A stretch of DNA of 64,000 nt from Nannocystis pusilla (GCF_051105105.1 NZ_CP185339.1), one strand, 5' to 3'; shown: positions 5,779-60,355, counted from the first letter of the stretch. A program made the numbers and translations. Notes: generated by a model from the sequence alone, not told the origin.

Positions 5779-8038
5779 CAAGCGAAGGGCATGTCGCTTC
5801 GGACATGCCCTTGGTCACATGTTTGAAGGGACATGCCCTCGAGAGCATGTCCCGAAGCGCCGGCGGACTCCGCGTGCGCCGCGTCCCCGGCGCGCCTCGC
5901 CCCGGCGCCGGGGACGTTGGCGAGCGCGGCCGGTCGCTCAGCCGGGCTGGATTCGAGCAGTAGCCGGCGATGCAGGTGCCTTCGCCCTCGCAGCAGGCCG
6001 CGTCGACCTCGCACGAGTCGCCGATGTGCGAGCAGGTGTCGGGCTTGTCGGAGCACACGGCAGGGTCGCCGTAGCAGAAGCCGTCGCAGCAGTCGAAGCC
6101 GGCGTTACAGCCCTCGCCGAGCTGCTTGCACGGCGACAGCGCCCACTCGCCGCGCATGTTCGAGTTGTTCAGCTCCTGGCCGGGCAGCCAGAAGGCCGGG
6201 TGGCTCGGGTCGGTGCCGGGGGTGATGTTGCCGTCGATGGCGGTCACCCACAGCTGCTTGCGCCGGGTGTTGGGGTTCATGTCGGTGAGCGTGTTGCCGT
6301 ACTTGCGCTCGGAGCCGATGATGAGCCACGAGTAGCCGCCGACCGACACGGGCAGGAAGGTCGGCTCGTAGGTGGTCTGGTCCTGGCCGGGCTCGACGAT
6401 GCCGAAGCCGTTGGCCTTGTCGAGGCGCACCACCGCGGAGCCGTCGAGGGAGGTCAGCCAGACCTCGGTGACCGCGGCACGGGTGCGGGCCTGGTTGAGG
6501 CGGTTGAACGCGATCCACTGCGAGTCGGGCGAGAAGGTCGGGAACGTCGTGGTCGTGAGCCCCGGGATCTTGTCGACGATCTGGTGGGCGTTGGCGAACG
6601 AGTTGGTCATCAGGTCGATGTCGACCAGCCACAGCTCGCTGTTGTTGAAGTCGAGCCAGTTGCCGTCGGTCTTGCGCGCGAACGCCACCTTGGTCCCGTC
6701 GCTCGACCACACCGGGTGCTGCGGCTTGCCGCCGGGCACGGTGAGCTGCGCGAGCACGGTGGAGCTGTCGAAGGTGGTCAGCTTGAGCGCGCCGCTCTCG
6801 TCGGACTGGCCCCACACCACGTGCGAGCCGTTGGGCGCGATCGCCTGGAAGCCGGAGGCGATGTCGGGGAAGTACAGGACGTTGCCGGAGGCGGCGTCGA
6901 TGGTGCTCCACGGGCTGTAGCCGCCGTGGAAGCTGGCGGCGATCCGCGAGCCGTCCTTCGACACGCTGTGACAGGCGACGCACGTGACGCCCGGCGGCTT
7001 CTGGATGAACTGCTCGGGCGCGGTGGCGCCGATGTTGAGGCGCACGACGTTGCCGTTGTTGACCTCCCAGTAATAGACGGTGCCGGTCAGGTTGGCCGGG
7101 GCGATCGTCCACGTCTGGGTCTTGGCGAGGTAGGCTTTCTGCCCGTCGAAGCGGGCGATGTCGACCTTGACGTTGCCCTCGGTCGAGGCGGTCAGCTTGA
7201 GCCAGATGTCGGTCGGCAGCTTCGGGAAGTCGAAGCGCGACGGCGGCGGCACGTTGTGCCAGCCCTTGTACTCGAAGAACTCGCTGTAGGCGTGGATGTA
7301 ATAGAGGTCGCTCGCGCCGCCGCCGTCCCACTGAATGGTGGGACCGATGAGGCCGCGCGGGAACACGGTCTTGTCGTACGGGTAGAGCAGGACCATCGAC
7401 GGGTCGGGGTCGACCGCCATCGGGAACAGGTCCTTGGTCTCCGGCGGGACCGGGTTCGGCTCGGCGTTGAACAGCAGCTTGACGGTGGCGGTGGTGGTGG
7501 CCGCGGGCAGCTCGCCGGCGCCCTCGAAGGTGACGGTGCCGACGCCGCCGGCGAAGCCGGTCGCGGTGAAGGTGCCCGAGAGGTCGCCGATGCCGGCGAG
7601 GTCGAGCTTGTCGTACGACCAGGTGCCGGTGACGGGGACCTTGATGCCCTTGTCGGTGACGCCGACGGCGCTGTACTGGGTGCTCGGCGGGATCACGCCG
7701 TCGACGACGGTGATGATCGCGTCGAGCGGATCGATCTCGATCGACACGACCATGCCCGGGTCGTCGCCCGTGGTCGCGGTGGTCGCCGGATCGACCGTGG
7801 TGCCGTTCGTGGTGCCCGTGACCGGTCCATCGGTCGGGTCGCCCATCGTGCCGCTGCCGCTCGGATCGGTGCTCGTCGGCGTCGCGGTGTCGGTGGAGTC
7901 GCTGCCGCTGCCGGTGTTTCCGGTGCTGAGCGAGGTGGAGGCGGAGATGACGGAGCTGTCGCTTTCGGCCGGACGATCGGGGTTGCCGCAGGCGAGCAGG
8001 CCGGCGGCCGAGAGGAGCGCCACAAAGTTCCAACGCAT
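5699..8038 (-). CDS. Secreted lipoprotein with a Ser/Thr/Gly-rich linker, a TolB/WD40-like beta-propeller region and a C-terminal Cys-rich module.
   Basis: Signal plus lipobox MRWNFVALLSAAGLLAC. The propeller-like segment includes VWSSDGTKVAFARKTDGNW...ELWLVDIDL. The C-terminal module is CKQLGEGCNAGFDCCDGFCYGDPAVCS...CIAGYCSNP. The last approximately 80 aa are Arg-rich, run through the hairpins and overlap the kinase 3' end by 80 bp. This is likely read-through past the true stop. Confidence 0.75.
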   Translation of the reverse strand: MRWNFVALLSAAGLLACGNPDRPAESDSSVISASTSLSTGNTGSGSDSTDTATPTSTDPSGSGTMGDPTDGPVTGTTNGTTVDPATTATTGDDPGMVVSIEIDPLDAIITVVDGVIPPSTQYSAVGVTDKGIKVPVTGTWSYDKLDLAGIGDLSGTFTATGFAGGVGTVTFEGAGELPAATTTATVKLLFNAEPNPVPPETKDLFPMAVDPDPSMVLLYPYDKTVFPRGLIGPTIQWDGGGASDLYYIHAYSEFFEYKGWHNVPPPSRFDFPKLPTDIWLKLTASTEGNVKVDIARFDGQKAYLAKTQTWTIAPANLTGTVYYWEVNNGNVVRLNIGATAPEQFIQKPPGVTCVACHSVSKDGSRIAASFHGGYSPWSTIDAASGNVLYFPDIASGFQAIAPNGSHVVWGQSDESGALKLTTFDSSTVLAQLTVPGGKPQHPVWSSDGTKVAFARKTDGNWLDFNNSELWLVDIDLMTNSFANAHQIVDKIPGLTTTTFPTFSPDSQWIAFNRLNQARTRAAVTEVWLTSLDGSAVVRLDKANGFGIVEPGQDQTTYEPTFLPVSVGGYSWLIIGSERKYGNTLTDMNPNTRRKQLWVTAIDGNITPGTDPSHPAFWLPGQELNNSNMRGEWALSPCKQLGEGCNAGFDCCDGFCYGDPAVCSDKPDTCSHIGDSCEVDAACCEGEGTCIAGYCSNPARLSDRPRSPTSPAPGRGAPGTRRTRSPPALRDMLSRACPFKHVTKGMSEATCPSLATSGARPARRARWPARAGRRGRGSPG
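5787..5853. repeat. Pair of GC-clamped CATG-core hairpins between convergent genes: GGGCATGTC-n6-GACATGCCC (5787-5810) and GGGACATG-n10-CATGTCCC (5828-5853).
   Basis: Perfect inverted repeats read directly from the sequence. A member of the dispersed palindrome family described in the findings. Confidence 0.7.
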
Positions 8039-8125
8039 GCCGCGATTACAGCGAAGATCGCCGGCCGCGGCTACACGGAGATCCCCGGTGCGACGCGAGC
8101 CCACGCAAGGCCCCGGGGCCGGCGC

Positions 8126-8145
8126 CGTCTGCAGGCGCGCAGACG
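8126..8145 (-). terminator. GC hairpin CGTCTGC-aggcgc-GCAGACG immediately 3' of the desaturase stop.
   Basis: A 7-bp perfect stem 5 nt downstream of the stop on the minus strand. No U-tract, as is usual in high-GC genomes. Confidence 0.35.
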
Positions 8146-8150
8146 GCTGC

Positions 8151-9023
8151 TCAGGACTTCAGCGGCTCGCGCGGGGCGACGATGTCGCGCGCGAGGCCGA
8201 CGAGCGCGAGGCCGCGGATCATGAGGTAGGTGACATCGAGCTCGAACCACCGCCGGCCGTGGGCCGCGGCGCGCTGGTGGGCGTGGTGGTTGTTGTGCCA
8301 GCCCTCGCCGAAGGTCAAGAGGGCCACCCACCAATTGTTGCGCGAGTCGTCGCGGGTCTCGTAGTTGCGGTAGCCCCACCGGTGCGCGGCGGAGTTGACG
8401 AGCCAGGTCGCGTGATACGTGAAGACCAGGCGCACCGGGATGCCCCACACGACCCAGCTCCAGCCCTGGCCGAGCCACGCCTCGCCGACGACGTAGAGCA
8501 GGACGGCCAGGACGAACTGCGGGACGTAGTGCCAGCGGTCGAACCACCGCATCACCGGGTCGCGCAGGAGGTCGCGGGCGAACGCGCGCTCGGCGTCCTC
8601 GTCGGCGCGCATGAAGACCCACAACATGTGGGCCCACAACAGGCCGTGCCGCGGCGAGTGCGGGTCGTGCTCCTGGTCGGACCAGCGGTGGTGCAGGCGA
8701 TGCTTGCCGACCCACAGCACCGGGCTGCCCTGCCAGCTCAAGGTGCCGAGCAGGACGATGACGTACGTCAAAAACCGCGGGACCGCGAAGCTGCGGTGAC
8801 ACAGCAGGCGGTGATACCCGAGGCAGATGCCGACGCCGCCGGCGAGCCACCAGAGCGCGGCGGCGACGCCGAGGCCGCTCCACGAGAAGGTGAACGGGGC
8901 CGCGATGCAGACCAGGTGCATCAGCCCGGCGCCGATCACGTGACTCCACATGAGTCCGCCGACTGCGGGCGAGCTGGTGGCCGGCGGAGGGACGAGTTCT
9001 TCGACTTCGACTGCCGTGGACAA
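8151..9023 (-). CDS. Acyl-CoA delta-9 desaturase family fatty-acid desaturase (integral membrane).
   Basis: Three histidine boxes: HRLLCHRSF, HRLHHRWSD and HNNHHA. The alternative start MWSHVIG is at 8951. Confidence 0.9.
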   Translation of the reverse strand: MSTAVEVEELVPPPATSSPAVGGLMWSHVIGAGLMHLVCIAAPFTFSWSGLGVAAALWWLAGGVGICLGYHRLLCHRSFAVPRFLTYVIVLLGTLSWQGSPVLWVGKHRLHHRWSDQEHDPHSPRHGLLWAHMLWVFMRADEDAERAFARDLLRDPVMRWFDRWHYVPQFVLAVLLYVVGEAWLGQGWSWVVWGIPVRLVFTYHATWLVNSAAHRWGYRNYETRDDSRNNWWVALLTFGEGWHNNHHAHQRAAAHGRRWFELDVTYLMIRGLALVGLARDIVAPREPLKS

Positions 9024-9210
9024 AGCCTCCGCAAGCTACCAGCGGCGAGCGCACGTCCAGAGCGGGGGCCCCCGCCGGTCGCGCGCGCCGACGCACGTCG
9101 GGTCCCCCGCCCGGGCCCCGAGGTCCGGGCTCGCCGGCGATGAGAGACCTCCGCCGGGTCCGCCGCCGCTCGGGCCAGGTGGGCCGCGCCGGCGGGTTAT
9201 TCTGCCGTCC

Positions 9211-10413
<1,203 letters not shown>

Positions 10414-10420
10414 GCGGGCG

Positions 10421-11062
10421 ATGGACGAAGCGAAGCAGCGGGCGGCCCGGGCGGCGCTGGAGCACGTAGCCGAAGCGACGGTGATCGGCGTGGGCACCGG
10501 CTCGACCGTGGCCCACTTCATCGACGCGCTCGACCCGGGGCGCATCGCCGGCGCGGTGGCCAGCTCGGAGCAGACGGCGGCGCGCCTGCGGGCCCGCGGG
10601 ATCGCGGTGCTCGACCTCAACACCACCGGGCCGCTGCCGCTCTACGTCGACGGCGCCGACGCCTGCGACCCGCAGCGCCGCCTGGTCAAGGGGGGCGGGG
10701 CGGCGCTGACGCGCGAGAAGATCGTGGCGGCGGCGGCGGAGAAGTTCGTGTGCATCATCGACCCGGGCAAGCGGGTGCCGCGGCTCGGCGGCTCGCCGCT
10801 GCCGGTCGAGGTCATCCCGATGGCGCGCGAGCTGGTGAGCCGCACGATCGCGGCGATGACCGGCGGCACGCCCGTGTGGCGCGAGGGGGTGGTCACCGAC
10901 AACGGCGGCTGGATCGTCGACGTCCACGGCCTCGTGATCGACGAGCCCGAGGCGCTCGAGGCGGCGCTGAACCAGATCGCCGGGGTCGTCAGCGTCGGCC
11001 TGTTCGCCCGCCGCCCGGCCGACCTCGTGATCGTCGGCGACGACCCGCCGTGGTCGTGGTGA
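10421..11062 (+). CDS. rpiA: Ribose-5-phosphate isomerase A.
   Basis: Motifs GVGTGST, YVDGADA and [13 protein letters not shown] over a 213-aa length. Starts 8 nt after the upstream stop. Confidence 0.9.
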
Positions 11063-11071
11063 TGCCCGAAC

Positions 11072-11109
11072 GGACATGCTCCCGAGGACATGACCGATGC
11101 GGCATGTCC
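11072..11109. repeat. GGACATG x2 plus the hairpin GGACATG-n10-CATGTCC between convergent rpiA and lipoprotein stops.
   Basis: Read directly from the sequence. Same palindrome family. Confidence 0.65.
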
Positions 11110-11120
11110 CGAGGGGCGCG

Positions 11121-12053
11121 TCACTCGGGGTTGTCCTTGAGCCAGCGCTCGTAGGCCTTGAGGTCGACGTTGCAGACCTTGGCGTACTCGGCGGCGACGG
11201 TCTTGCGCTCGTAGGCGCGGTCGCTGGCGGCGCGGTTCTGCTGCTCGCGCAGGGCGTCGAGGGCCTCGAGCACGTTGCGGAAGTAGACCCACCGCTTGGG
11301 CTGGTCGGCGGTCGGCGGCGGGGTGCCGCCGCAGTAGCGGGCCAGCCAGCCGTGGGCCTCGGCGACCTTGCCCTGCTCGCGCAGGGCCGTGGGCATCGCC
11401 GGCAGGCAGCTCTGCAGCATCAGCGACACGCGGTCGGGGCCGCGGGCCTGCTCGGCGAGGCAGCGCTCGCTGAAGCGGGCGTGGTCGCCGACGAGGAAGG
11501 CGTCGCGCACGTAGGTGTCGCGCTCGAACTCCGAGCGCGACGGCTGGGCGCGGTCGCAGGCGTACATGTCGACGAAGATCTTCTGCGGGCCTTCGGGACA
11601 TGGCACTTCGTACAGGTCGATGACGTGGCCGTCCTTGTTGGCGCCGACGTTGCCGCGGCGGGCCTTCATGCCGCTGGGGATGTCGCCGTCGAACGGGCGG
11701 GTGCCGTCCTCGCACTCGGCGTCGGCGACCGCGACGTAGGAGCCGGTGGTGCCGCAGGCGAGCAGCGGGCGGTCCTTGGAGGAGCCGGGCGGCCCGAGCG
11801 GCGCGGCGTTCTCGGGGGCGCGCGCGTCGCCGATCCGCTCGCGCTCGTCGGTGCGACCGGGCCGCGGGCCCCCCGGGTTGGCGAAGGCGCCCGACGAGGT
11901 GGTGGCCGGATCGAGCGGCGAGGCGTCCGCCCCGGCGATGGGGGTGCCGAAGGCGCCCGACTCGGTCGCCGCGGGGGCCTTGGCCCGGCCCGACGTGGAG
12001 GTCTTGCAGGCGAGCAGGCAGGCGAGGGCGAGGAGCAGGGGCGGACGACGCAT
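11121..12053 (-). CDS. Hypothetical secreted lipoprotein.
   Basis: Signal plus lipobox MRRPPLLLALACLLAC. The upstream 56 codons of the track ORF are low-complexity and were rejected. Confidence 0.65.
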   Translation of the reverse strand: MRRPPLLLALACLLACKTSTSGRAKAPAATESGAFGTPIAGADASPLDPATTSSGAFANPGGPRPGRTDERERIGDARAPENAAPLGPPGSSKDRPLLACGTTGSYVAVADAECEDGTRPFDGDIPSGMKARRGNVGANKDGHVIDLYEVPCPEGPQKIFVDMYACDRAQPSRSEFERDTYVRDAFLVGDHARFSERCLAEQARGPDRVSLMLQSCLPAMPTALREQGKVAEAHGWLARYCGGTPPPTADQPKRWVYFRNVLEALDALREQQNRAASDRAYERKTVAAEYAKVCNVDLKAYERWLKDNPE

Positions 12054-12123
12054 GCGCGAGTCAACGTTAGCACGGGGCTCGCAGCCCGCGCTCGTGGCGT
12101 CGATCGACGTTGCCCCGGCGGCG

Positions 12124-12504
12124 TCAATGCGGGTGCTGCGGCAGGTCGTCGGCGATGTCGTAGTAGTCGCCCTTGTCGGCCACGTGGATGTGCATGGCCA
12201 GGCGGGCGTGCGTCGGCGCATCGAAGGCGCCCATGGCGACGGCGATCTTCGCGGCGAAGATCGGGTCCCAGAACAGCCACGAGCCGCAGGTCGAGCAGAA
12301 GCCGCGGCGCACTTTCTCCGACGAGCGGAACCAGGTCAGGCGGTCCTCGCCGCGGATCGTCAAGGCTTCGCGCGGGACGTTGGTCGAGGCCCAGTAATGG
12401 CCCGATTGTTTGCGGCACTGCGAGCAATGGCAGGCGTTCGGCGGGGGCAACGGGCCGGCGACCTCGAAGGTCACGGCGCCGCAGAGGCAAGATCCCTTGG
12501 GCAT
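12124..12504 (-). CDS. GFA family protein (glutathione-dependent formaldehyde-activating / CENP-V-like zinc protein).
   Basis: Cys ligand pattern CLCGAV...CHCSQCRKQSG...CSTCGSW over 126 aa. The start MPKGS was found by arithmetic from the stop. Confidence 0.8.
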   Translation of the reverse strand: MPKGSCLCGAVTFEVAGPLPPPNACHCSQCRKQSGHYWASTNVPREALTIRGEDRLTWFRSSEKVRRGFCSTCGSWLFWDPIFAAKIAVAMGAFDAPTHARLAMHIHVADKGDYYDIADDLPQHPH

Positions 12505-12536
12505 GGCGCTCCTGTTCGCGGCGATGGTACCAGCGG

Positions 12537-14624
<2,088 letters not shown>

Positions 14625-14828
14625 GGCCCAGGATACGCCGGGCTCGCGCGCGGGCCCAGGGGCGGCCGCGAGGGGGCGGGCGCGGCGAGGCAGCGCGAGC
14701 CTCGATCCACGTTGCAGGGGGTGTCGATGCGTCACCGGCCGTATCGGCGGACCTGTGTCCGCGTCGCGGACATCGAGGTGTCGATGCAGGTGGGAGTGAC
14801 GGTCGTCGCGTCGATTGCGCGGCTGGTC

Positions 14829-15485
14829 ATGCGGGCCTCGTTTTCCTATGTTCCGCGCCGCGTGACCCTCCGCGATTTCATCCCCCCATGCATCGCTCTG
14901 GCGGCGTGCCTGAGCCTGGCCTGCTCCGACGACAAGGACCCGCTCGACTCGGTGACCAGCCCGACGGCGACGACGACGAACCCGAGCAACGGTTCGAACG
15001 CGAGCAACGCCTCCAACGCGTCCAACCCCGGCAACAGCACCGACGGCACCGACAGCACCGATCCCGTCGACAGCACCGACGGCACGACGGCGACCGACAC
15101 TGGCGTCGACGAGACGACCGGGCCGACCACGGGCGAGCCGACCGCCGGCACGACCGTGGCCGAGACGACCGCGGCCGAGACGACGAGCACGAGCGAGCCG
15201 CCGCCGACCGACGGGCCCGGAGTGCTGCCCGGCGAGGACGGCATGCAGGCGTTCTGTCGCCGCTACAAGGAGTGCGGCGGGACCTACTACGGCGACCAGC
15301 AGGAGTGCCTCGACGCGACCTACGACTACTGGGGCAGCTGCCCGTCGCGCAAGGCGGCGCTCGACGAGTTCGGCGCCTGCATGTCGGAGCTCGACTGCGG
15401 CGAGTGGAACCCCGACGCCTACAACCCGGGCAGCACCCCGTGCGCCGAGCAGTGGGGCGGGGTCCAGTCGGCCGAGCCGTGCTGA
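14829..15485 (+). CDS. Small secreted lipoprotein with an Asn/Ser/Thr-rich linker and a Cys-rich C-terminal domain.
   Basis: Lipobox IALAACLSLAC. Contains NASNASNAS repeats. The C-terminus has 8 Cys. 218 aa. Confidence 0.6.
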   Translation: MRASFSYVPRRVTLRDFIPPCIALAACLSLACSDDKDPLDSVTSPTATTTNPSNGSNASNASNASNPGNSTDGTDSTDPVDSTDGTTATDTGVDETTGPTTGEPTAGTTVAETTAAETTSTSEPPPTDGPGVLPGEDGMQAFCRRYKECGGTYYGDQQECLDATYDYWGSCPSRKAALDEFGACMSELDCGEWNPDAYNPGSTPCAEQWGGVQSAEPC

Positions 15486-15494
15486 AGGACTGAA

Positions 15495-15548
15495 GGGACA
15501 TGTCCCCTGAGACCGGTGCTCAGGGGCATGGCTCCGGGGACATGTCCG
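15495..15548. repeat. GGGACATGTCCC (a perfect 12-bp palindrome at 15495-15506), the hairpin CCCTGAG-n7-CTCAGGG, and GGGGACATGTCC at 15537-15548.
   Basis: Read directly from the sequence. Lies between the convergent lipoprotein and methyltransferase genes. Confidence 0.7.
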
Positions 15549-16795
15549 ATGCGTCAGCCTCGATCCGGAAGTAGCGGAAGCCGCCGCCGCCGGTCCAGCC
15601 GGCCGCCGCGGTGACGCCGCTGGGATCGCGCCCGTCGACGACCGCGCGCAGGCGCGGGGCCACGAGGGTGTCGCAGTGCTCGCCGCGCTCGACGAGGATC
15701 CAGCGCCGCCGCAGCTTGTGGGCGACGGCGCCGGTGGTGCCCGAGCCGGCGTAGACGTTGAGGACCCAGTCGCCCGGGCGCGTCGAGAGGCTCGAGCACG
15801 CGGCGCAGCAGGGCCTCGGGCTTCTTGCCCTTGGGGAAGGCGACGCCGCCCTCGTTGTGCAGGTTGTTGGACAGCAGGTCGTCCCAGATGGTGGTGAGCG
15901 GCTCGCCGGCGACCCGCTGGCCGTCGATGAGCTTGAGCTTGGCGGCGTAGAAGAGGATCCGCTCGCCGCGGACGAAGTAGAAGTCGTCGTGGTCGTCGCG
16001 CCCTAACCGGAGGACGACGTCGGGCTCGGCCTTGGAGCGGTCGATCATGGCCCGCGCGGCCGCGCTGACGCCGTTGTAGTCGGGCCGCGCGAGGCGGACG
16101 ACGGCGTCGGCGTGGGCGAGCACGAATTCGTCGAGGCGCTCCGGCTCGGCCCGCGCCAGCCGCTGGGCCGCCCGCTCGCCCAGGCCGCAGGCGTCGGCGA
16201 AGGCGCGCATGAGCGTGACGAGCCGCCATTCGGCGTGCGGCGCGGGCCGATTGACGATGAACTGGGCGTACCGCGGGTCGCGCTCGCGGGCGGTGTACAG
16301 CCGCTGCGGGGCCCAGCGCGCGCGGTCCTTGCAGTACACGAGGACGAAGTTGGAGGTCGAGACGCAGCCGGGGTTTATCGCCTTGTGGCCGGTCGGCGCG
16401 CCCTGCTTGAAGGTGACGACCGAGGCGCGGTTGGCCCGGCCGAAGATGTCGTCGAGCAGGACGATCAGGTAGCCGAGCTCGTTGTCGTCGATGTGGACGA
16501 ACAGGGTGCCGTCGGCGGCCAGCAGGTCGCGCAGGACGGTGAGCCGGGCGCGCATGTCGGCCAGCCAGCGCGCGTGCTCGATGCCGTCGTCGTAGTGGGC
16601 GAAGGCGCGGCCGGTGTTGTACGGCGGGTCGATGTAGACGCAGCGGATCTTGCCGGCGAACTCGGGCTCCAGCGCGCGCAGGGCCGCGAGGTTGTCGCCG
16701 CGGATCAGGCGGTTGTCGTAATGGTCGCCCGCCACCTCGGGGCCGGCCGCGCGGTGGGACAGCGCGAGGGCCTCGACGAGGGGGCGCGGATCCAC
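15520..16795 (-). CDS. Site-specific DNA methyltransferase, beta-class (N6-adenine/N4-cytosine), orphan, carrying an apparent +1-nt frameshift near its C-terminus.
   Basis: N-terminal NRLIRGDNLAALRAL and motif IV IRCVYIDPPYNTG. After LLRRVLE the frame changes at plus coordinates 15786-15790 into PGDWVLNVYAGSGTTGAVAHKLRRRWI (motif I). No restriction enzyme gene lies next to it. Confidence 0.7.
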
Positions 16796-16848
16796 GACCC
16801 GACGCTAGCGCAGGCCGGCGGCGCCGACAAGCTGGCCTTCAGGCCAGG

Positions 16849-17364
16849 TCACGGGAACGTGAGCGCCACCTGGGCGCTGGCGCCGCGGCAGACCGGCTCA
16901 CACCCGGGGCCGTTGGGCCGCGACTCGACGTAGGTGGGGGCGATGTTGCCGCTGTAGATCGTCTCCTCGCCGCGCTGGATCTTCAGCTCGACGGCCGCGG
17001 GGCTGCTCGGGATCTGGATGTCCGCAAAGCCGTGCTGCTCGGGCGGCAGGGCGCAGCCGGACTCGCCGATCTGCACGCGGTCGGCGACGTTGCAGGTGAG
17101 CGAGGGGCCGGCGTCGCAGGCCTTGAGCGGCAGGGCGCCCTTGCAGGTGACGGGGACGCCGTCGAGCGCGAAGGCGAACGTGTAGTCGCCCGCCGGCCAG
17201 CCGGCGTTCGGCTGCAGCTCGATCCGCAGGCCGCCGATGCAGCCGATCTCGGTGCACACCTTGCCGCCGCCGCCGCCGGGGTCGCTGGGCTCCACCTGGC
17301 CTTTGGAACATGCGCTGAGGAGCAGGCCGACGAGGAGGGGGACAGGGGCGCGGAGCCAGGGCAT
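16849..17364 (-). CDS. Hypothetical small lipoprotein.
   Basis: Signal plus lipobox MPWLRAPVPLLVGLLLSAC. 172 aa. Confidence 0.65.
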   Translation of the reverse strand: MPWLRAPVPLLVGLLLSACSKGQVEPSDPGGGGGKVCTEIGCIGGLRIELQPNAGWPAGDYTFAFALDGVPVTCKGALPLKACDAGPSLTCNVADRVQIGESGCALPPEQHGFADIQIPSSPAAVELKIQRGEETIYSGNIAPTYVESRPNGPGCEPVCRGASAQVALTFP

Positions 17365-17444
17365 GCCGGAGCTTGGCACGAGTCGCGGCGACACGCACGC
17401 GCGCGAGCCTTTACAGCCGCCGGCCCGGCCCGTAGCCTGCGGGC

Positions 17445-18515: not shown

Positions 18516-18691
18516 GTAGACCGCGGCGCGGCGCGGCCTGAGCGCTGTGGCGATCAGCGGATGGGCAGACAGGTGCCGGCTGGCAGCCAGCGAGCGCGGT
18601 GGCCCGCGATCGACCGCTCGGCGCGCGCTCGTCGTGTGATTCGCAGCGCCGACATCGACGGCTCCTCGGAGTCGCTGTTTCTCAGGCGCGC

Positions 18692-21303: not shown

Positions 21304-21309
21304 TTCGCG

Positions 21310-45859: not shown

Positions 45860-46039
45860 CCCGCTCCACGCGGCGGCGTGAGGCCAGCGGCGCTTCATGC
45901 TCCGCGATCCGTCGGGGATCGCCGTCGACGTGGTCGAGCAGATCGAGCCGCAGCCGGGGTTCTGGGGCGAGTACATGGCTTGAGATTCACCTGTCCCGAG
46001 GGACAGAGGCGGCGCGTGGGGCGCGCCGCCGTCTTCGCG

Positions 46040-48786: not shown

Positions 48787-49030
48787 GAGACTCCCGCGCG
48801 GGCTGGGCCGGTCTACGATCTCATACCACGCGACGCTCCGCGGGGCGCCCGGGGATGCCCGGGCCGGGCTCGCCCCGGCCCGGCCGAGAGCCACGCGGCG
48901 CGCTGGTGTCGGGCGCCGTCGCCGGGCCGACCGACGAGCCGGGGACCCGGGCGTGACTGCGCCCGGTGCTGCGCTCGCCGACCCGAGAAAGGGCCCTGGG
49001 CGCGGCCGTGGGAGGGTTCGGCGCGCGCGG

Positions 49031-49046
49031 ATGTCCTTCGAGACAT
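49031..49046. repeat. Inverted repeat ATGTC-cttcga-GACAT in the divergent fibro-slime/MBL promoter region.
   Basis: Read directly from the sequence. Confidence 0.5.
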
Positions 49047-49096
49047 GCGCGCCGCCGGTGGACACGGCGCGGCGGGGGCACTAGCCTTCGCAGCCG

Positions 49097-54830: not shown

Positions 54831-54848
54831 TGTCCCGATGGACATGTC
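54831..54848. repeat. TGTCC-cgat-GGACA plus GGACATGTC abutting the start codon of the downstream gene.
   Basis: Read directly from the sequence. Confidence 0.55.
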
Positions 54849-55220: not shown

Positions 55221-55345
55221 GCACGACCTCGCTCGCGCCGGTGCCCAGCGGCGGCGAGAGTGAGGTCGCGGGGAGGCGGAAGCTGTCCTTGAAGACGGCT
55301 TAGGATGCTGCCGTTGAGTCGGCGCAGGAGAATCGTATGCCCATG

Positions 55346-55371
55346 AGGACATGTTGAATAAGACATGTCCT
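55346..55371. repeat. Hairpin AGGACATGT-tgaataag-ACATGTCCT between convergent genes.
   Basis: Read directly from the sequence. Confidence 0.7.
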
Positions 55372-55381
55372 TGGAGACTCG

Positions 55382-56993
55382 TCACGGAGGGAGCTGGCTG
55401 CAGAGGAAGGCGTCCTCGGCGATCATCGTGCGGCCGAGCGCGTCGGTGAGGGTCGCGCGCACCCGCGCCTGCGTGCTCACGGTGCAGGTGCCGTGGGTGG
55501 TCGCGGGGTTGTTGGCGTGGGCCGGGTTGACCGCGGCGTTCAGCACGCCCTGCCAGGTGGCGGTCCACGGCCCGAGCCCGGTCGGCGACGAGGTGCACGT
55601 ATAGCCGCCGCCCCCGGTCGACTCGCACGTGATCGACAGGGTGAAGGTCGAGGCCTGGACGGCGCCGAAGGCATTGACCATACCGGCGCCGCAGTTCGTG
55701 CACGGGATGGGCTTGGCCGTCTTCACGAGGATCTGCTTGATCTGCGACGCCGTCAGCGCGGGGTTGCGGGCGCGCATCAGCCCGACCACGCCGCTCACGT
55801 GCGGGGCCGCCATCGACGTGCCGGCCCAGTGGCGGTGGCACTGCGGGCCGGTCTGCTCGTAGGGGATCCACGTCGACACGACGCCGTGGGTGCCGGTCTG
55901 GGTCGGATTGGTCGGGCAGCCGATGAGGGCGCCGTTGCCGGCCTGGCCGTTCACCGCCGAGCCGCCGGGCGCGGCGAGCGTGATGCCCGGGTACTTGGCG
56001 AGGGGGTTGGACTGCAGGGCGTAGGGCTCGGCGTTGCCGAACTCGTCGACGGCGGTGACCACGATCAGGTCGGGGTTCTGAGCGTGGCACCTCGGCCACA
56101 GATAATTGGAGGCGTTGAAGTCAGGGCTCGGCGGCCAGGTGGTCCCGGAGTCGCCGTTGCCCGCGGCGACCACCACCACGGTGCCGGCCTCGGAGGCCTT
56201 GTCGATGGCGTCCTTGAGGTCGGCCGGGCACGGCTGCGCGAGGTTGCCGATGCTGATGTTGATGACATCGGCGCGCGAGCTGGCCTGCACCGTCTCGCCT
56301 CGGCCGTTGTCGGTCGGCAGGCCGGCCGCGTAGCGGATCGCGCGGGCGAGCAGGGTAGTGGTCGGCTCGTTCATGCCGGGGTCGCCGACCTGGGCGCCGC
56401 CGCCGGATTGCGCGACGCGGAGCGGGCGGAGCTTGCAATTCCAGCAGATGCCCGCGCCGCCGCTGCCGTTGGTGGCGGCCGCGGCGAGGGTGCCGGCGAC
56501 GTGGATGCCGTGGTGAAAGTCCCCGGGGTCGGTCGGGTCGGGGTCGCCGACGAAGAAGTCATAGCCGCTCGACCAGGTGAGCTCCGAGTGGGGGAGGGTG
56601 CCGCTGTCGGCGATGGCGATGGTGACCGCAGGCGAGCCGGTGGTCAGCCACCAGGCCTCGGGCAAGGAGATGGCGCCGTAGTGCCACTTCTGTCCCGAGT
56701 GGTAGAGCGGATCGTTCGGCTCGAGGGTCAGCGAGCGGGGCTCGATCTCGTCGTCGGACGGATCTGCGAGCTCGTCGACGGCGGCCTCGGGCTCGAACGT
56801 CGCAGGCCGCGCCGCTCGCGAGCAGGAGCGGGAGCAGGAACGACCGCGCGCGCAGGGGCGAACCGAAGAACTCGTGGTCTCGAGGGCGACGCCGGAGGCG
56901 ATTCGAGGGGGAAGCCCGGATGTCGGGAGGGTCGCGGGTCTCGGGGACGGCGATACCGAGCAGGGTGCGAAGCGAAGGCGTGCGAAGGGGCAT
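55382..56993 (-). CDS. Subtilisin-like S8 serine protease, secreted lipoprotein, carrying an apparent frameshift just after the lipobox.
   Basis: Catalytic His HGIHVAGT and Ser GTSMAAPHVSG. The signal FFGSPLRARSFLLPLLLASGAAC is in a different frame (the 56559-57071 track ORF) from the mature protein ATFEPEAAVDEL. The junction is at approximately 56800. The start is uncertain. Confidence 0.7.
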
Positions 56994-57163: not shown

Positions 57164-57206
57164 TGTCTCATCATGCATGTCTTATAGGATATGTCCCATG
57201 AGACAT
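57164..57206. repeat. Nested inverted repeats TGTCTCATCATG...CATGAGACA around GCATGTC/ATGTCCC, abutting the stop of the permease gene.
   Basis: Read directly from the sequence. Confidence 0.55.
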
Positions 57207-57698
57207 TCACAGGCGCGTCAGACGGACGATGAGCTGGGCGGTGGCGCCGGCGGCGAACGGGAGGAGGCAGGAGGCGGCGATCCGCAGGAGGGCCAGGCGG
57301 CCGCCGTAGATGCCGAGCTCCATGGGCAGGCGCAGGAGCGGGAGGAGGGCCATGCTGGTGAGGTAGGTGACGAGGACGCCGACGCCGGCGCCGGCCTTGA
57401 GGAGGCCGGCCGCGAGGGGCATGCCGAGGAGGCCGCCGCCGGGGGTGAGGGCGCCGGCCACCCACGCGAGGAGGTGGCCGCGGACGCCGGCGCCGTCGGA
57501 GAGCCAGCGCTCGACGAAGCCGGTCGGGAGGAGGGCCTCGGCCATGCCGGCGAGCAGGAAGGCGACGGCGAGGATCGGCATCATCGCCAGGAAGGTCCGG
57601 CCGGACCGCTGGAGGCCGTCGACGAACACGCCCTGGACGGCCGCGAGGACGCCGAGGATGAGCAGCGCGGCGCCGAGCAGGAGCAGGGCGAGCTTCAC
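57207..57698 (-). CDS. Small multi-TM membrane protein (putative permease subunit), translationally coupled to the upstream gene.
   Basis: Its GTG start overlaps the TGA stop of the RPH-like gene (GTGA). 163 aa with 4-5 hydrophobic helices. Confidence 0.6.
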   Translation of the reverse strand: MKLALLLLGAALLILGVLAAVQGVFVDGLQRSGRTFLAMMPILAVAFLLAGMAEALLPTGFVERWLSDGAGVRGHLLAWVAGALTPGGGLLGMPLAAGLLKAGAGVGVLVTYLTSMALLPLLRLPMELGIYGGRLALLRIAASCLLPFAAGATAQLIVRLTRL

Positions 57699-60355
57699 GG
57701 GGCGGCCTCCGCGAGGACCTCGACGATGCCGCGGCTACCGTCGACGCGCAGGCGCTGGCCCGACTTGAGCCGCTTGGTGCCGTCGCCGACGCCGACGACC
57801 GCGGGGATGCCGTACTCGCGGGCGATGACGGAGCCGTGGGTCATCATGCCGCCAACGTCGCACACGAGGCCGGCGGCGTGGACGAACAGCGGGGTCCAGC
57901 CGGGATCGGTGTAAGGCGCGACGAGGATCTCGCCGGCGCGCAGGACCTGGGCGGCGGGATCGAGGACGACGTGGGCGATGCCCTCGACGACGCCGGCGCT
58001 GGCGCCGAGGCCGGCGATCGCACCTTCGGGCATGTCCTTCGGGACAGGTCGAGCGGGGACCTCGCCCTCGCTGGTGACGACGAGCGGCGGGCTCAGGTGG
58101 CGCGAATGATCATAGTCGGCGCGGCGAGCGAGGATTCGCGGGCGCGGATCGAAGGCGTCGGGGTTGGCGGCGAGCTCGAGCAATTCGTCGTAGGTCAGGA
58201 ACCACACGTCGCCGCGCGCGGCCAGGCGACCGGCGTGCACGAGCGCCTCGGCGGCGGCGAGGACGTTGCTGCGCACGAGCTCGAAGCACTGGATGAACAG
58301 GAACTTGGGGTGCTCGCGGACGCCGAGGCAGTAACGCACGCACTCGACCTGGCGGCGGACGATCCAGCGCGCCAGGGCGGGCGCGGCGGCGACGAGGCGC
58401 GCTGCGGCGGCCTCGGCCTCGGCTTGCAGGCCGGCGAAGTGCTTGCGGTGCTGGCCAGGGGCGTCGCCGTGGGCCGCCATGCCGCGGATGCTGGTGAGCA
58501 GCAGGCCGGGGTCGTCGGCCCAGCGCGGGCGGCCGATGTCGATCTCGGCCTGGCCGCGCATGCCGAAGCGCGCGAGGAAGGCGGCGAGGGCGTCGCCGAA
58601 GGCCGGGCCGCCGGGGAGGGCGCGCAAGGTGTGGAGCTCGCCGGGACGGACGTGCTCGAGGGCGGTGCGCAGCTCGGGGTATGGGCGCGCGAGGTCGGCG
58701 AGGTCGCCGACGCGCAGGTCCATCTCGGTGGTGACGTTGCCGACGAGGCCGCGCTGGAGGGCCTCGACGTCGGCGGCGTGCGGGGTGTCGGCGAAGCGGC
58801 GGCGCAGGCGGCCGAGGCTCAAGAGGCCCGAGACGAGGCGCGGGGCGATCTTTGGCATGACCTGGAAGACGCCGGTGAGCTGGTGCCGGGCGGCGCGCAG
58901 GCGGGCGACCCCGGGGGGCTGGGATTCGACGGCGGCGCGGAAGTCGGCGACGCGAGCGGCGACCAGGCGATCGGCCCAGGCGGTCTGGGTGTCGAGGCGG
59001 GCGCCGAGCAGCAGCCAGGCGAGGTCGAACGGGACGCGCCACATCATCCCGAGGACCAGGCGCAGGGCCGCGGGGCGGGGCTTGGCGGCGGCCTGGATCT
59101 CGGGGCGGTCGACCAGAGTCGCCAGGCGCTCCCCCACGTCGGGGTAGACCGCGCGCAAGATCCGGAACATCAGCCGGCGCGTCGGACCCAGGCGCAGCAT
59201 GGGCGTGATGTCGAGGTAGATCCGGCTACCGGCGTCGACCATCGTCGTCACGCCGCGCGGGAGCTCGTCCATGCGGGTCTTGCCGAACGGGAACACCGCG
59301 CGCCACAGGTCGCGGCTCATCGGCGTGATCGGGTCGATCATGTTCTGGGCGTGGCCGAAGCTGAGGTAGAGGTGGACCGCGCCGTCGTCGGGGCCGGGCG
59401 CGGGCAATGGATAGAGCGAGGTGATCGGGCGCGCCTGGACGAGCCACAGTTGCTGGCCGGAGAGGCACCATTCGAGGTCCTGGGGGACGCCGCCGTAGTG
59501 GGCCTCGACGCGAGCGCCGAGGTCGGCCAGCGCGGCGACGGCGGCGTCGTCGAGGACGCGGGCGCGCCGCCTGGCCTCGGGGACATCTTCGGTGACGGTG
59601 CCGCCGCCGGGCGCGGGGCGGATGGCGACCTGCTTGTCGCCGACGCGCAGCTCCTTGAGCGCGCCGCTGCGGCGATCGACGCGGTAGAGGTCGGCGGTGA
59701 CGAGGCCGCTGACGAGGGCCTCGCCGAGGCCGTAGCCGGCGTCGATGGTGAGGGTGCCGCGGTGGCCGGTGACGGGGTCGGCGGTGAAGAGGATCCCGCT
59801 GGCCTCGGGTACCACCATTCGCTGGACGACCACCGCGAGGGCGACGTGGCGGTGGCCGAAGCCGTTGCGGGCGCGGTAGAGGATCGCGCGGTCGGTGAAC
59901 AGGCTGGCGAAGCAGCGGCGGACCGCGGCCAGCAATTCGTCGTCGCCGCGGATATTGAGGTAGGTGTCCTGCTGGCCGGCGAACGAGGCGCCGGGGAGGT
60001 CCTCGGCGGTGGCGGAGGAGCGGACGGCGTAGGCGTGCTCGCGGCCGAGCTCGTGGTGCGCGGCGGTGATGGCGACGACCAGCTCCGGCGGCAGCGGGAC
60101 GGCGAGCAGGGCGTCGCGCACCGCGGCCCCGAGCTCGCGCGCGCCGGCGATGTCGTCGGGATCGAGGGCATCGAGCCGATCGAGCCACGCCGAGAAGGTG
60201 GGACAGCCGGCGACGAAATGGCGATAGGCGGCCGTGGTGACGCAAAAGCCGGGTGGGACGGGGAAGCCGGCGCGGGTCAAGGCGCCGAGGTTTTGCCCCT
60301 TGCCGCCGACGCGCGCGAGGTCGTCGGGTAAGGTGGCGGAAAATGGCACGAGCAT
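57695..60355 (-). CDS. PEP-utilising enzyme of the rifampicin-phosphotransferase (RPH) / PEP-synthase-like family.
   Basis: N-terminal ATP-grasp segment LARVGGKGQNLGAL...GFPVPPGF. C-terminal phospho-histidine swivel domain GGMMTHGSVIAREYGIPAVVGV at the extreme C-terminus, which is the RPH-type domain order. 886 aa. The ATG lies 2 nt after the TetR stop. Confidence 0.75.
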   Translation of the reverse strand: MLVPFSATLPDDLARVGGKGQNLGALTRAGFPVPPGFCVTTAAYRHFVAGCPTFSAWLDRLDALDPDDIAGARELGAAVRDALLAVPLPPELVVAITAAHHELGREHAYAVRSSATAEDLPGASFAGQQDTYLNIRGDDELLAAVRRCFASLFTDRAILYRARNGFGHRHVALAVVVQRMVVPEASGILFTADPVTGHRGTLTIDAGYGLGEALVSGLVTADLYRVDRRSGALKELRVGDKQVAIRPAPGGGTVTEDVPEARRRARVLDDAAVAALADLGARVEAHYGGVPQDLEWCLSGQQLWLVQARPITSLYPLPAPGPDDGAVHLYLSFGHAQNMIDPITPMSRDLWRAVFPFGKTRMDELPRGVTTMVDAGSRIYLDITPMLRLGPTRRLMFRILRAVYPDVGERLATLVDRPEIQAAAKPRPAALRLVLGMMWRVPFDLAWLLLGARLDTQTAWADRLVAARVADFRAAVESQPPGVARLRAARHQLTGVFQVMPKIAPRLVSGLLSLGRLRRRFADTPHAADVEALQRGLVGNVTTEMDLRVGDLADLARPYPELRTALEHVRPGELHTLRALPGGPAFGDALAAFLARFGMRGQAEIDIGRPRWADDPGLLLTSIRGMAAHGDAPGQHRKHFAGLQAEAEAAAARLVAAAPALARWIVRRQVECVRYCLGVREHPKFLFIQCFELVRSNVLAAAEALVHAGRLAARGDVWFLTYDELLELAANPDAFDPRPRILARRADYDHSRHLSPPLVVTSEGEVPARPVPKDMPEGAIAGLGASAGVVEGIAHVVLDPAAQVLRAGEILVAPYTDPGWTPLFVHAAGLVCDVGGMMTHGSVIAREYGIPAVVGVGDGTKRLKSGQRLRVDGSRGIVEVLAEAAP

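Follow-up and report, generated by a model that had tools for sequence, protein, structure and literature searches.

The window, by which we mean the whole stretch of 64,000 nucleotides of DNA from the myxobacterium Nannocystis pusilla that was analysed, carries a dispersed family of GC-rich palindromes with a CATG core. The sequences listed in the initial annotation were found where it had placed them, including the 12-mer GGGACATGTCCC (15495 and 22427), an 18-bp palindrome at 22424-22441 and five 14-mers at 28401-28470. What it had missed is a regularity: all sites in the window are phased arrays with a strict 14-bp phase. The module of these arrays is 14 bp long and comprises the decamer GGRCATGYCC and 4 variable bases, and two to five modules make up an array. 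The arrays and related sites are as follows; none is assigned a strand.

5785-5854: 5-unit array; convergent gap between a Ser/Thr kinase gene (stop 5778) and a PD40/Cys-rich gene (true stop about 5937)
11056-11111: 4-unit array; fills a convergent gap of 58 bp, flanked by rpiA (stop 11062) and a minus-strand lipoprotein gene (stop 11121)
13403-13444: weak 3-unit array, doubtful member; within the GSDH coding sequence; cores CCTG, CATG and CAGG
15494-15549: 4-unit array; fills a convergent gap of 68 bp, with a lipoprotein gene (stop 15485) on one side and a Mod-like methylase gene (stop 15554) on the other
22181-22222: 3-unit array; co-directional (minus strand) gap, about 50 nt upstream of an SDR gene start
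22426-22453: 2-unit array; 30 nt past the stop (22483) of the upstream minus-strand gene
24845-24872: 2-unit array; 114-bp convergent gap, beginning 10 nt past the stop at 24835
24929-24942: single spacer-centred inverted repeat TGTCC-GTTC-GGACA; same convergent gap as 24845-24872
28403-28472: 5-unit array; fills the 62-bp convergent gap between a GST gene (stop 28400) and a TetR gene (stop 28463)
45992-46005: single inverted repeat TGTCC-CGAG-GGACA; convergent gap; CCTG and CAGA replace the CATG cores
49025-49052: weak 2-unit array; divergent gap, 45 nt upstream of the start at 49097
54831-54848: single inverted repeat TGTCC-CGAT-GGACA, then TGTC; co-directional gap
55331-55386: 4-unit array; convergent gap, at the stop (55382) of a subtilase gene
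57171-57212: 3-unit array; runs over the stop (57207) of the minus-strand gene upstream; lies ahead of the subtilase gene
58026-58053: weak 2-unit array, doubtful member; within a PEP-utilising enzyme coding sequence; inner TGTCC-TTCG-GGACA
61252-61279: weak 2-unit array; gap upstream of a TetR gene; inner TGTCC-GAAA-AGACA

The outer units of the array at 15494-15549 are perfect or near-perfect copies of GGGACATGTCC, and the 12-mer at 15495 is perfect, as is the one at 22427; the array at 22426-22453 contains the perfect 18-bp palindrome, CTCGGGACATGTCCCGAG. The array at 28403-28472 overlaps the last three TetR codons and is seen by TRF with a period of 14, while the weak array at 49025-49052 has good inner halves only (ATGTCC-TTCG-AGACAT). 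The DNA methylase adjoining one of the arrays is a Type III Mod-like adenine methylase; no link between it and the arrays was made.

Strong arrays occupy 7 of about 44 intergenic gaps in the window (8 arrays), or 8 gaps with 9 arrays if the frameshift-masked gap at 5785-5854 is added, and a few further gaps hold single inverted repeats. The enrichment in gaps is real, but the earlier statement that the palindromes lie at most gene boundaries was too strong, and the arrays are specific to gene 3' ends. Copies thought to abut start codons proved to be an artefact of shadow ORFs, since 11097-15485(+) and 5819-8224(+) are not genes. Small overlaps with the 3' ends of genes, also remarked on earlier, do occur and are conserved; the array at 5785-5854, however, lies only apparently inside a gene tail, because of a one-base frameshift that is absent from the orthologues. 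Two sites had been called weaker variants: that at 27455-27465 is not a member, having been recovered by neither the PWM chain scan nor the half-site scan, and that at 58030-58045 corresponds to the doubtful array within coding sequence at 58026-58053. The array at 13403-13444 is conserved in locus L002, probably as coding sequence.

Architecture of the arrays

In the window, distances of 14, 28 and 42 bp between CATG tetramers occurred 14, 8 and 5 times, respectively, compared to about 0.5 at other spacings, and 11 other tetramers treated in the same way gave no peak. The 14-bp signal was found in four other Nannocystis loci as well and was absent from 1.29 Mb of high-GC control DNA (38 versus 29.7). 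CATG shows no avoidance in the window, with an observed/expected ratio of 1.27. The sequence GACATGTC occurs 8 times in the window against 0.80 expected, a count that none of 100 shuffles reached, and the 12-mer GGGACATGTCCC occurs 9 times with up to 2 mismatches against 3.07. Chains of at least two phased units in the PWM scan numbered 16 versus 2.8 in shuffles (shuffle maximum 8), and strong units are 40 times denser outside genes than within them (binomial p = 3e-11). The shuffles, the PWM chains and the extragenic density all bear out the original impression that the motif is far above chance.

The palindromic decamer amounts to about 13 bits, and the 4 spacer bases of each module are unconstrained and rather A/T-rich. 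Because the modules follow one another head to tail in exact phase, an array is a lattice of alternating half-sites, GGRCA/TGYCC-N4-GGRCA/TGYCC, with one dyad per 7 bp. Unit-centred and spacer-centred half-site partners are equally frequent (29+4 and 30+4), and terminal units taper, with 6.75 bits in the inner half versus 4.36 bits in the outer half (p = 1e-4). Spacer-centred inverted repeats of the form TGYCC-N4-GGRCA number 61, many with an A before and a T after. On the sense strand of co-directional gaps the strand-specific half-site TGYCC carried 5.61 versus 4.34 bits, a difference that was not significant (p = 0.16).

In 179 kb of Nannocystis DNA we counted 43 arrays, 17 of two units, 10 of three, 12 of four and 4 of five, which leans towards even numbers. 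Their outward flanks contain at most 0.22 bit per position and no asymmetric conserved foot such as GTAG, and the residual signal is only that of a decaying next unit. At L210 17764 the same variant core is present in four of four units, making a phased repeat of a non-palindromic variant, and L107 has phased repeats of this kind too. L209 21892 is a 28-bp duplication, and together with the array at L210 17764 it provides evidence of growth by local duplication. TRF reports only two arrays in the window (28404-28439 and 15518-15544), missing the others because their units have diverged; on this ground an ordinary tandem repeat was rejected. A CRISPR array was likewise rejected: such an array has identical repeats of 23-50 bp with unique spacers of comparable length between them, whereas here diverged units recur every 14 bp with 4-bp spacers.

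Position and conservation

Of 24 convergent gaps 16 held an array, compared to 12 of 57 co-directional and 2 of 27 divergent ones (Fisher odds ratio 10, p = 6e-6). In co-directional gaps, 11 of 14 arrays lie no more than 50 nt from the upstream stop, arrays begin within about 10 nt of stop codons, and arrays in convergent gaps are longer (3.6 versus 2.7 units, p = 0.01). The arrays thus fill promoter-free gaps behind gene 3' ends. Tolerance of insertions could by itself explain this pattern, so that it is no proof of an effect on transcription.

Both the position and the register of the arrays are common to the window species and up to five other Nannocystis species, with orthologous arrays in four of these at the RpiA locus and in N. 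punicea at the gap between GST and TetR. The array at 5785-5854 has orthologues at L001 5366-5435 and L002 5266-5335, and that at 22181-22222 at L001 20550 and L002 20057. The register of the array at 15494-15549 is identical in five species. Counterparts of the array in the rpiA gap (11056-11111) occur in L001, L002 and L004, and it is absent from L003, where the neighbouring genes are rearranged. The N. punicea orthologue of the array at 28403-28472 consists of 4 units in identical register (L205 18913-18968). This shared placement contradicts the earlier proposal of recent insertion or spread and indicates that the arrays were in place before the sampled Nannocystis species diverged. Later changes were confined to substitution and to the gain or loss of whole modules of 14 or 28 bp; one polymorphism was examined, and there the window species has lost 18 bp. 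The comparisons made contained no pair of filled and empty sites with clean boundaries, and no copying mechanism was seen in them.

Across 18 orthologous units, the minimum number of changes was 4 in 72 columns for the core versus 40 in 72 for the spacer (p = 3e-11), and in pairwise comparisons the C and A of the core had an identity of 1.0, against 0.56-0.72 for spacer positions. The CATG core is thus under strong purifying selection, and the spacers drift. The core contains A and T and is invariant despite a genome of 71% GC. As had been asked of a genuine family, then, the palindrome is conserved beyond its GC-rich stems, with a CATG core that is almost invariant across orthologues.

Seven close relatives outside Nannocystis (Lhr 60-79% identical) have no arrays in the related high-GC loci, and the median convergent gap is 6 bp in these relatives versus 62-95 bp in Nannocystis (p = 7e-4). 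Most matches in a metagenome scan were satellites of 7 or 14 bp in low-GC DNA, and the few contigs resembling true arrays have 69-75% GC (L106, L132, L107 and L136); a metagenome contig of 75% GC with four arrays is Nannocystis-like by protein similarity. The viral contigs scanned contained only satellites and chance matches and no such arrays, and a phage origin was rejected for this reason. In the literature, no paper was found that ties the motif to bacteria, and the decamer appears only as a p53 half-site. The family is genus-specific to Nannocystis and resembles REP/BIME elements, with an unusual lattice architecture.

Interpretation of the arrays

REP/BIME elements, which are associated with a RAYT (TnpA_REP) gene, are imperfect palindromes of 35-40 nt with a GTAG foot that are clustered in alternating orientation with fixed linkers (PMC3479197), and titles in the reference list of that paper describe their binding by gyrase, IHF and Pol I. 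The Nannocystis arrays share with those of E. coli a high copy number, lineage specificity, and imperfect palindromes that are extragenic and clustered with a fixed linker; the linker is constant, here 4 bp, with exact phase. Stable stem-loops may be a further common feature, with pairing in the Nannocystis arrays no better than the motif predicts. Both kinds of element are found in 3' transcribed regions and convergent gaps and not in divergent promoter gaps. Unlike REP/BIME, the Nannocystis module is only 14 bp, lacks a GTAG-like foot and has a 4-bp A/T-containing centre where REP has a bulged stem, and there is no REP versus iREP orientation, because each module is its own reverse complement. 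Of the readings given at first, the label REP/MITE-like is the best supported, operationally and in its REP part (high copy number, lineage specificity, palindromes, fixed linker, 3' ends), whereas the MITE part and an asymmetric foot of the GTAG type fail. Pseudomonas REPINs are described as paired inverted REPs that a single-copy RAYT replicates and that are vertically inherited over long times. Lineage specificity and long persistence at orthologous positions are common to both families, and two modules likewise make one hairpin, but where REPINs are recognised as clouds of near-identical 16-mers around a master sequence, Nannocystis copies share only the decamer consensus, their flanks and spacers being unrelated.

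In the explanation that we favour, to which we give about an even chance of being correct, the arrays are old, genus-specific, REP/BIME-like extragenic palindromes kept by sequence-specific recognition of the decamer, putatively by a dimeric protein. The modules would first have been seeded into 3' gaps by some copy-and-paste process, since chance would account for only about 100 decamers in a genome, most of them inside genes. They would then have persisted because a putative factor recognises the sequence of the decamer. For this factor, a homodimeric protein on duplex DNA would be the most economical candidate, and an alternative would be a RAYT-like enzyme acting on the hairpin form. The 14-bp module falls far short of the length of a REP and its arms are palindromes in their own right, which favours recognition of duplex DNA by a dimer over hairpin recognition of the RAYT type. 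A Y1-transposase (RAYT) or other transposase gene was seen neither in the window nor among the genes tabulated for L205, L209 and L210 (about 180 kb of a genome of 12-13 Mb). For the cell, the outcome could be a spacer of about 60 bp, bulky, prone to hairpins and able to load protein, that separates convergent transcription units, and a gene 3' end from the next promoter. Such a spacer could act by impeding read-through, by protecting 3' ends, or both.

A protein-binding lattice on its own is possible, though clearly less probable. The arrays would then be operators of an abundant Nannocystis-specific protein that binds duplex DNA by its sequence and that could be nucleoid-associated, could block or insulate transcription, or could make them topoisomerase loading sites; the elements would never have been mobile, and one dimer would bind per decamer or per TGTCC-N4-GGACA, every 14 bp. 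The initial suggestion that the motif is the operator of an abundant DNA-binding protein is, on the alignments, compatible with the conservation pattern. The informative palindromic decamer, with its core conserved and the pairing between units not, would fit such a lattice, as would an exact phase even among units that do not pair, equally frequent half-site partners, tapering terminal units and the phased non-palindromic variants of L210 and L107. MetJ met-boxes are tandem operator arrays of a ribbon-helix-helix repressor. A precedent within the Myxococcota is CdbA, a sequence-specific nucleoid protein of Myxococcus with a GC-rich direct-repeat site of 4-bp spacing (PMC7156744), set beside the arrays here by its description, as the text gives no sequence for the site. 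The arrays resemble sites of the MetJ and CdbA type in their short modules, strict phase and 2-5 repeats, and in those systems a dimer binds each module with cooperative tiling, but those sites lie in promoters or over genes rather than at 3' ends and have periods of 8-11 bp. The spacer-centred ATGTCC-N4-GGACAT is literally ATGT-N8-ACAT and so matches the PadR-family operator, an ATGT-N8-10-ACAT inverted repeat (PMC3506622), a resemblance that we treat as a lead only, because PadR operators are single promoter sites beside the regulator gene and the arrays are estimated in thousands at 3' ends. Against a lattice without mobility, thousands of phased multi-site arrays are implausible by single point mutations, and a seeding mechanism is therefore still needed; local duplication of 14 or 28 bp would alone also yield the phase. 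Furthermore, operators at gene 3' ends are atypical, and the window proteins scanned included no candidate: there was no PadR-family match and no unusual DNA-binding gene, and the TetR, LysR and Mod genes beside the arrays are ordinary.

Returning to recognition of the decamer by a dimeric protein, a more specific form of it, which we regard as doubtful, would make the lattice the loading platform of a Nannocystis-specific protein, with a dimer on each decamer tiling every 14 bp (a 120-degree screw). At the ends of convergent genes, such a platform could block or insulate transcription in both directions through the bound protein, or could organise supercoils or the chromosome.

Somewhat less probable again is that the arrays are RNA elements, either factor-independent bidirectional terminators, as first proposed, or hairpins that protect 3' ends, with a stem shared by descent. 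Like intrinsic terminators, they place a GC-rich hairpin directly behind stops, often between convergent genes, and the hairpins are very stable relative to dinucleotide shuffles, with z between -4 and -7 and, at 28398-28480 for instance, a fold of -51.2 kcal/mol. Two modules yield a hairpin of 24-28 nt whose stem has 9-11 bp and whose loop has 4-6 nt, although the repeating module itself is 14 bp, and a long nested hairpin is possible with four. The array at 5785-5854 folds at -41.9 kcal/mol on both strands (z about -5.8), that at 28403-28472 at -51.2 kcal/mol on the plus strand versus -30.3 on the minus strand, and the inverted repeat at 24929-24942 is part of a hairpin with a 10-bp stem. 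The proximity of arrays to stops and their lean towards even unit numbers would also suit an RNA element, as would one clear compensatory CCTG/CAGG pair in N. exedens, a variant that recurs at 45992. However, arrays fold only 0.2-0.7 SD better than random concatenations of units, and the motif alone explains the stability. Adjacent and next-adjacent units are no more complementary than random unit pairs; units three apart pair at 0.68 versus 0.45 at position 4, in a sample (n = 44) from orthologue-redundant arrays. RNAalifold found one compensatory pair among five orthologues of the array at 15494-15549, with a covariation term of +0.84 and thus no covariation support. These comparisons indicate that the motif is conserved rather than the pairing, and a hairpin would require neither an invariant CATG nor a single 14-nt phase.

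The surroundings of the arrays do not support canonical factor-independent termination either. No T-tract follows them, their flanks being GC-rich, and in contrast to intrinsic terminators they lack T- or A-tracts, share the stem sequence and do not favour the sense strand. Of 14 arrays in co-directional gaps, 12 have a sense RNA that is less stable than the antisense RNA. This difference follows the C-rich skew of sense strands and therefore does not reflect selection for pairing; the G-U asymmetry at 28403 was considered as RNA-level selection and rejected as general strand skew, with the wrong sign in co-directional gaps. A terminator scan of positions 5001-25000 gave 7 sites versus 5.2 expected, none at any array, and at the gathering threshold of Rfam 15 there was no match at the arrays, the sole matches being two to RF02735 inside encapsulin genes. 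Lastly, the convergent gaps of the relatives, for which lengths alone were measured, are too short for an element of about 60 bp.

A functionless, selfish MITE-like element that spread recently and is tolerated in promoter-free gaps is very improbable. Tolerance alone would give the observed distribution among gap types, and the arrays are an addition to gaps that measure about 6 bp in the relatives, but positions and register common to up to six species largely refute it. In addition, the copies are not near-identical and share only the decamer, so that TRF detects two arrays; neither terminal inverted repeats nor target-site duplications came to light in the flanks and alignments inspected, which were not searched for them specifically; the core keeps its A and T unchanged although the genome has 71% GC and the spacers drift; and the viral contigs hold no such arrays. 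Finally, chance or a compositional artefact, whereby the arrays would be nothing more than the GC-rich palindromes common in high-GC genomes, is refuted by the shuffles, the distance spectrum, the high-GC controls and the seven related loci.

Significance of the array family

Extrapolation from the 43 arrays in 179 kb gives about 3,000 arrays and 9,000 copies of the decamer per Nannocystis genome of 12-13 Mb, and a family so abundant, regular and old implies a dedicated recognition factor. Binding, termination and stability would be straightforward to assay on synthetic arrays, given so short, symmetric and phased a module, and the array-free sister lineages are natural controls. The arrays mislead gene callers, through shadow ORFs that start at the ATG of CATG and through ORF tails that enter arrays. 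They can be used as genus-specific markers and are worth considering when expression is engineered in Nannocystis producers of natural products. The family could help to answer why REP-like families persist, and if the arrays are indeed loading platforms for a dedicated protein, they would constitute a DNA-encoded termination or insulation system of a kind undescribed in bacteria.

Architecture of the arrays and the surrounding gene map

The sequences that the initial annotation had listed were confirmed at their coordinates, and palindromes are indeed present there; they are not isolated sites, however, since their centres lie exactly 14 bp apart, a spacing that had been missed. The repeating unit is (n)GGRCATGYCC(nnn), and the CATG centres of four arrays are as follows.

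Centres of the CATG cores in four arrays of the window
5785-5854 (kinase): 5786, 5800, (5814), 5828, 5842
11056-11111 (rpiA): 11071, (11085), 11099
15494-15549 (lipoprotein/methylase): 15495, (15509), 15523, 15537
28403-28472 (GST/TetR): 28404, 28418, 28432, 28446, 28460

Perfect copies of GGGACATGTCCC occur at 15495 and 22427, and with up to two mismatches it was observed 9 times in the window against 3.07 expected. The octamer GACATGTC was found 8 times against 0.80 expected, a number reached in 0 of 100 shuffles. Among CATG-CATG distances in the window, 14 pairs are spaced by 14 bp, 8 by 28 bp and 5 by 42 bp, compared with a mean of 0.5 for other distances, and none of eleven other tetramers tested gave a peak of this type. 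A symmetrised weight matrix of 14 bp recovered 16 chains with two or more units in phase, versus a mean of 2.8 and a maximum of 8 in dinucleotide shuffles. The claim that the motif exceeds its background frequency is thus borne out, and an origin of the arrays by chance is next to inconceivable. Outside genes, the density of strong units (12 bits or more) is 40-fold that within them (16 versus 2; p = 3e-11).

Across 179 kb there are 43 arrays, of which 17 have two units, 10 have three, 12 have four and 4 have five; extrapolation gives an estimated ~3,000 arrays per genome. Among good half-sites, an abutting partner (GGRCA|TGYCC) is as frequent as one across the spacer (TGYCC-N4-GGRCA), and the terminal units taper, their inner halves scoring 6.75 bits versus 4.36 bits for the outer halves (p = 1e-4). 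An array is best described as an alternating half-site lattice with one dyad per 7 bp. The four bases of the spacer follow no consensus and are higher in A/T than the genome, and comparison of the array flanks revealed no asymmetric conserved flank. Lone spacer-centred inverted repeats lie outside the arrays at 24929, 45992 and 54831.

Because this DNA is 70-75% GC, long shadow ORFs are plentiful, and the gene map was made with a codon-usage caller trained on Pfam-supported genes. Two long ORFs take the ATG within a CATG unit as their start codon and have no Pfam match.

11097-15485, plus strand: ORF of 1462 codons
5819-8224, plus strand: ORF of 801 codons

Their GC peaks at codon position 1, which identifies both as antisense shadows, with the real genes on the opposite strand. 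The real minus-strand genes at 11.1-15.5 kb encode a lipoprotein, a GFA-family protein and a GSDH-family protein, and a plus-strand lipoprotein gene has its stop at 15485. Sites had been described as abutting start codons; those start codons belonged to the shadow ORFs, and this association therefore disappears. Similarly, array 5785-5854 seems to lie within a gene tail because an additional T near 5945 frameshifts a PD40/Cys-rich secreted-protein gene relative to two orthologues; this T is either an error of sequencing or a genuine lesion. The resulting ORF is 86 codons longer and runs across the array into the kinase gene tail; the orthologues lack the T and stop ~100 bp beyond the array. 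The same convergent gap holds, at 5880-5925, a GC-rich inverted repeat, CGTCCCCGGCGC...GCGCCGGGGACG, which is outside the CATG family and is conserved, with equivalents in two other Nannocystis loci (L001 and L002). These two loci carry an additional TGTCCC-GA-GGGACA repeat in this gap, which an 18-bp deletion has removed from the window species.

Other features of the window were recorded as follows.

15554-16795, minus strand: Type III Mod-like adenine DNA methyltransferase
35947-40909, minus strand: operon of a terpene synthase, a SAM-methyltransferase and two SrpI-like (family 2) encapsulin shell genes
42714-43344: 96-bp tandem repeat, ~6 copies, ~80% identical, within a DUF4215 cysteine-rich repeat protein gene
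57695-61252, minus strand: TetR regulator and PPDK_N/PEP-utilising (rifampicin-phosphotransferase-like) enzyme in one stop-free frame

The adjoining gene map shows no restriction partner beside the methyltransferase, and no link between this enzyme and CATG was found; the ORF of the enzyme extends 26 nt into the adjacent array in four other Nannocystis species. Both encapsulin genes have cNMP-binding domains, and the operon, which is conserved in N. punicea and N. bainbridge, looks like a predicted encapsulated pathway for a methylated terpene of the 2-methylisoborneol type. The sole Rfam matches in the window, to RF02735 ('Saccharopolyspora sRNA 350') at 38985-39492 and 40479-40967 on the plus strand (90 and 122 bits), are both antisense within encapsulin coding sequences; what this family represents is probably conserved encapsulin coding sequence, read from the other strand, and not an sRNA in its own right. 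The TetR regulator and the PEP-utilising enzyme are possibly a fusion; alternatively, the second gene may have an internal start.

Position relative to genes and distribution of the family

Gaps between genes were counted in six Nannocystis loci, with database gene calls for three of them.

Gaps containing an array, by gene orientation
Convergent: 16 of 24
Co-directional: 12 of 57
Divergent: 2 of 27

This bias has a Fisher odds ratio of 10 (p = 6e-6), and arrays are longer in convergent gaps (3.6 versus 2.7 units; p = 0.01), which they typically fill up to ~10 nt from either stop codon, three such gaps measuring 58, 62 and 68 bp. Of 14 arrays in co-directional gaps, 11 are at most 50 nt from the upstream stop, even in gaps of 300-900 bp. 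Convergent gaps have a median length of 6 bp in seven array-free relatives versus 62-95 bp in Nannocystis (p = 7e-4), so that an array represents ~60 bp added to an otherwise near-empty junction. In these relatives (L201-L204 and L206-L208) convergent genes nearly abut and several overlap, an arrangement in which transcripts would enter the neighbouring gene. In the window, N. bainbridge and N. radixulma, GC skew tracks gene orientation and not one replication arm; C is in excess on sense strands by ~10-14%, and arrays at 3' ends show the same skew, suggesting that they are transcribed together with the upstream gene.

The RpiA of the window is 86-93% identical to that of four Nannocystis species, and the 14-bp signal is present in all four loci. 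The other 76 loci retrieved with RpiA were from Xanthomonadales and served as a 1.29 Mb high-GC control, in which the signal is absent (38 pairs at d = 14 versus a mean of 29.7). Homologues of the Lhr helicase provided three further Nannocystis loci (N. punicea, N. bainbridge and N. radixulma), as well as loci from the seven relatives at 60-79% Lhr identity (Myxococcales MAGs, Minicystis and others). Arrays are present in N. punicea; the seven relatives, at 24 kb each, contain no CATG pairs 14 bp apart. A metagenome scan with a three-unit pattern returned simple satellites for most matches and a few contigs of 69-75% GC with diverged arrays in intergenic gaps, one of which (L106) encodes proteins whose best named relatives are from Nannocystis (70-78% identity). 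No comparable arrays were found in viral contigs. The family is therefore specific to Nannocystis and close uncultured relatives. The rpiA gene itself (10421-11062) has its nearest relatives outside the genus in Xanthomonadales (63-72% identity) and not in other Myxococcota, which suggests that Nannocystis may have acquired it horizontally.

Conservation and folding

Five arrays (kinase, rpiA, lipoprotein/methylase, SDR upstream and GST/TetR) occupy equivalent places in two to five other species, with an unchanged register relative to the flanking coding sequence and no internal indels. Behind rpiA in N. radixulma the neighbourhood is rearranged, and the new junction has no array. For 18 orthologous units, at least 4 changes are required in the 72 columns of the core versus at least 40 in the 72 of the spacer (p = 3e-11); pairwise identity is 1.00 for C, 1.00 for A, 0.98 for G and 0.83 for T in the core, compared with 0.86-0.89 for the GG positions and 0.56-0.72 for the spacer. 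Since an A/T-containing core is invariant in a 71% GC genome, the alignments argue for purifying selection on the core. The initial annotation had proposed recent insertion or spread, citing copies inside gene tails, but the few-codon overlaps are themselves conserved (TetR here; methylase in four other species), and shared positions, register and core constraint leave the proposal unsupported. A functionless recent MITE is accordingly very improbable. Changes of whole modules do occur: 21892-21947 in N. bainbridge is a 28-bp duplication, and the number of units in the rpiA array, 4 or 5, differs between species. In N. radixulma, array 17764-17819 carries a CCTG variant core in all 4 units; it lies within an operon, in the gcvT-gcvH intercistronic gap, its sense strand folds poorly, and it could be decayed or functionally different.

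It is also possible to regard the arrays as RNA hairpins that terminate or stabilise transcripts, as they fold better than dinucleotide shuffles (z = -4 to -7; -51.2 kcal/mol for 28398-28480). Such folding is expected from any concatenation of palindromic units, however, and the arrays exceed random concatenations of real units by only 0.67 SD (plus strand) and 0.19 SD (minus strand). Adjacent units show no extra complementarity at variable positions relative to random unit pairs, and five orthologues of array 15494-15549 yield one compensatory pair and a positive, that is unfavourable, covariation term. In co-directional gaps the sense transcript is less well folded than the antisense in 12 of 14 arrays, a difference that follows the general C-richness of sense strands and not selection for pairing. 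No T-tract was found after an array, no array has an Rfam match, and the TGYCC half shows no significant bias towards the sense strand (p = 0.16). The missing T-tracts and the poorer sense-strand folding leave a canonical terminator unsupported, and hairpins acting in RNA are, more generally, unlikely. The conserved feature is therefore the decamer sequence and its phase, not base pairing itself, although the argument from phase is partly weakened because local duplication yields phase automatically.

Possible origin and role of the arrays

REP/BIME elements are abundant, lineage-specific, palindromic and long-lived, form fixed-linker clusters and are restricted to transcribed, promoter-free 3' regions (PMC3479197 and abstracts on REPINs). 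Operationally the CATG arrays resemble them in all these respects, but they lack one defining feature, the asymmetric GTAG-type foot, and their module is 14 bp long and self-complementary. Judged from its symmetry, such a module would be the signature of a homodimer on duplex DNA and not of RAYT-type recognition of a bulged hairpin. A pure protein lattice that was never mobile is a possible but doubtful account. The spacer-centred reading ATGTCC-N4-GGACAT matches the PadR-family operator ATGT-N8-ACAT (PMC3506622), and the decamer is the same as a p53 half-site; both are resemblances, not evidence. A full-text literature search gave no account of this motif, nor of any extragenic repeats in Nannocystis or in myxobacteria.

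We give about an even chance to the reading that the arrays are an old family of REP/BIME type, retained because the decamer is recognised by its sequence. We infer that some copy mechanism seeded the family, that arrays would grow and shrink through slippage of 14- or 28-bp modules, and that a putative protein reading the decamer would cause them to be kept. The arrays may then separate convergent transcription units as spacers that are prone to form hairpins and can be loaded with protein, with a presumed effect on transcription or chromosome structure. The arrays would be of great interest should the lattice prove to insulate or terminate transcription in both directions with the help of a protein.
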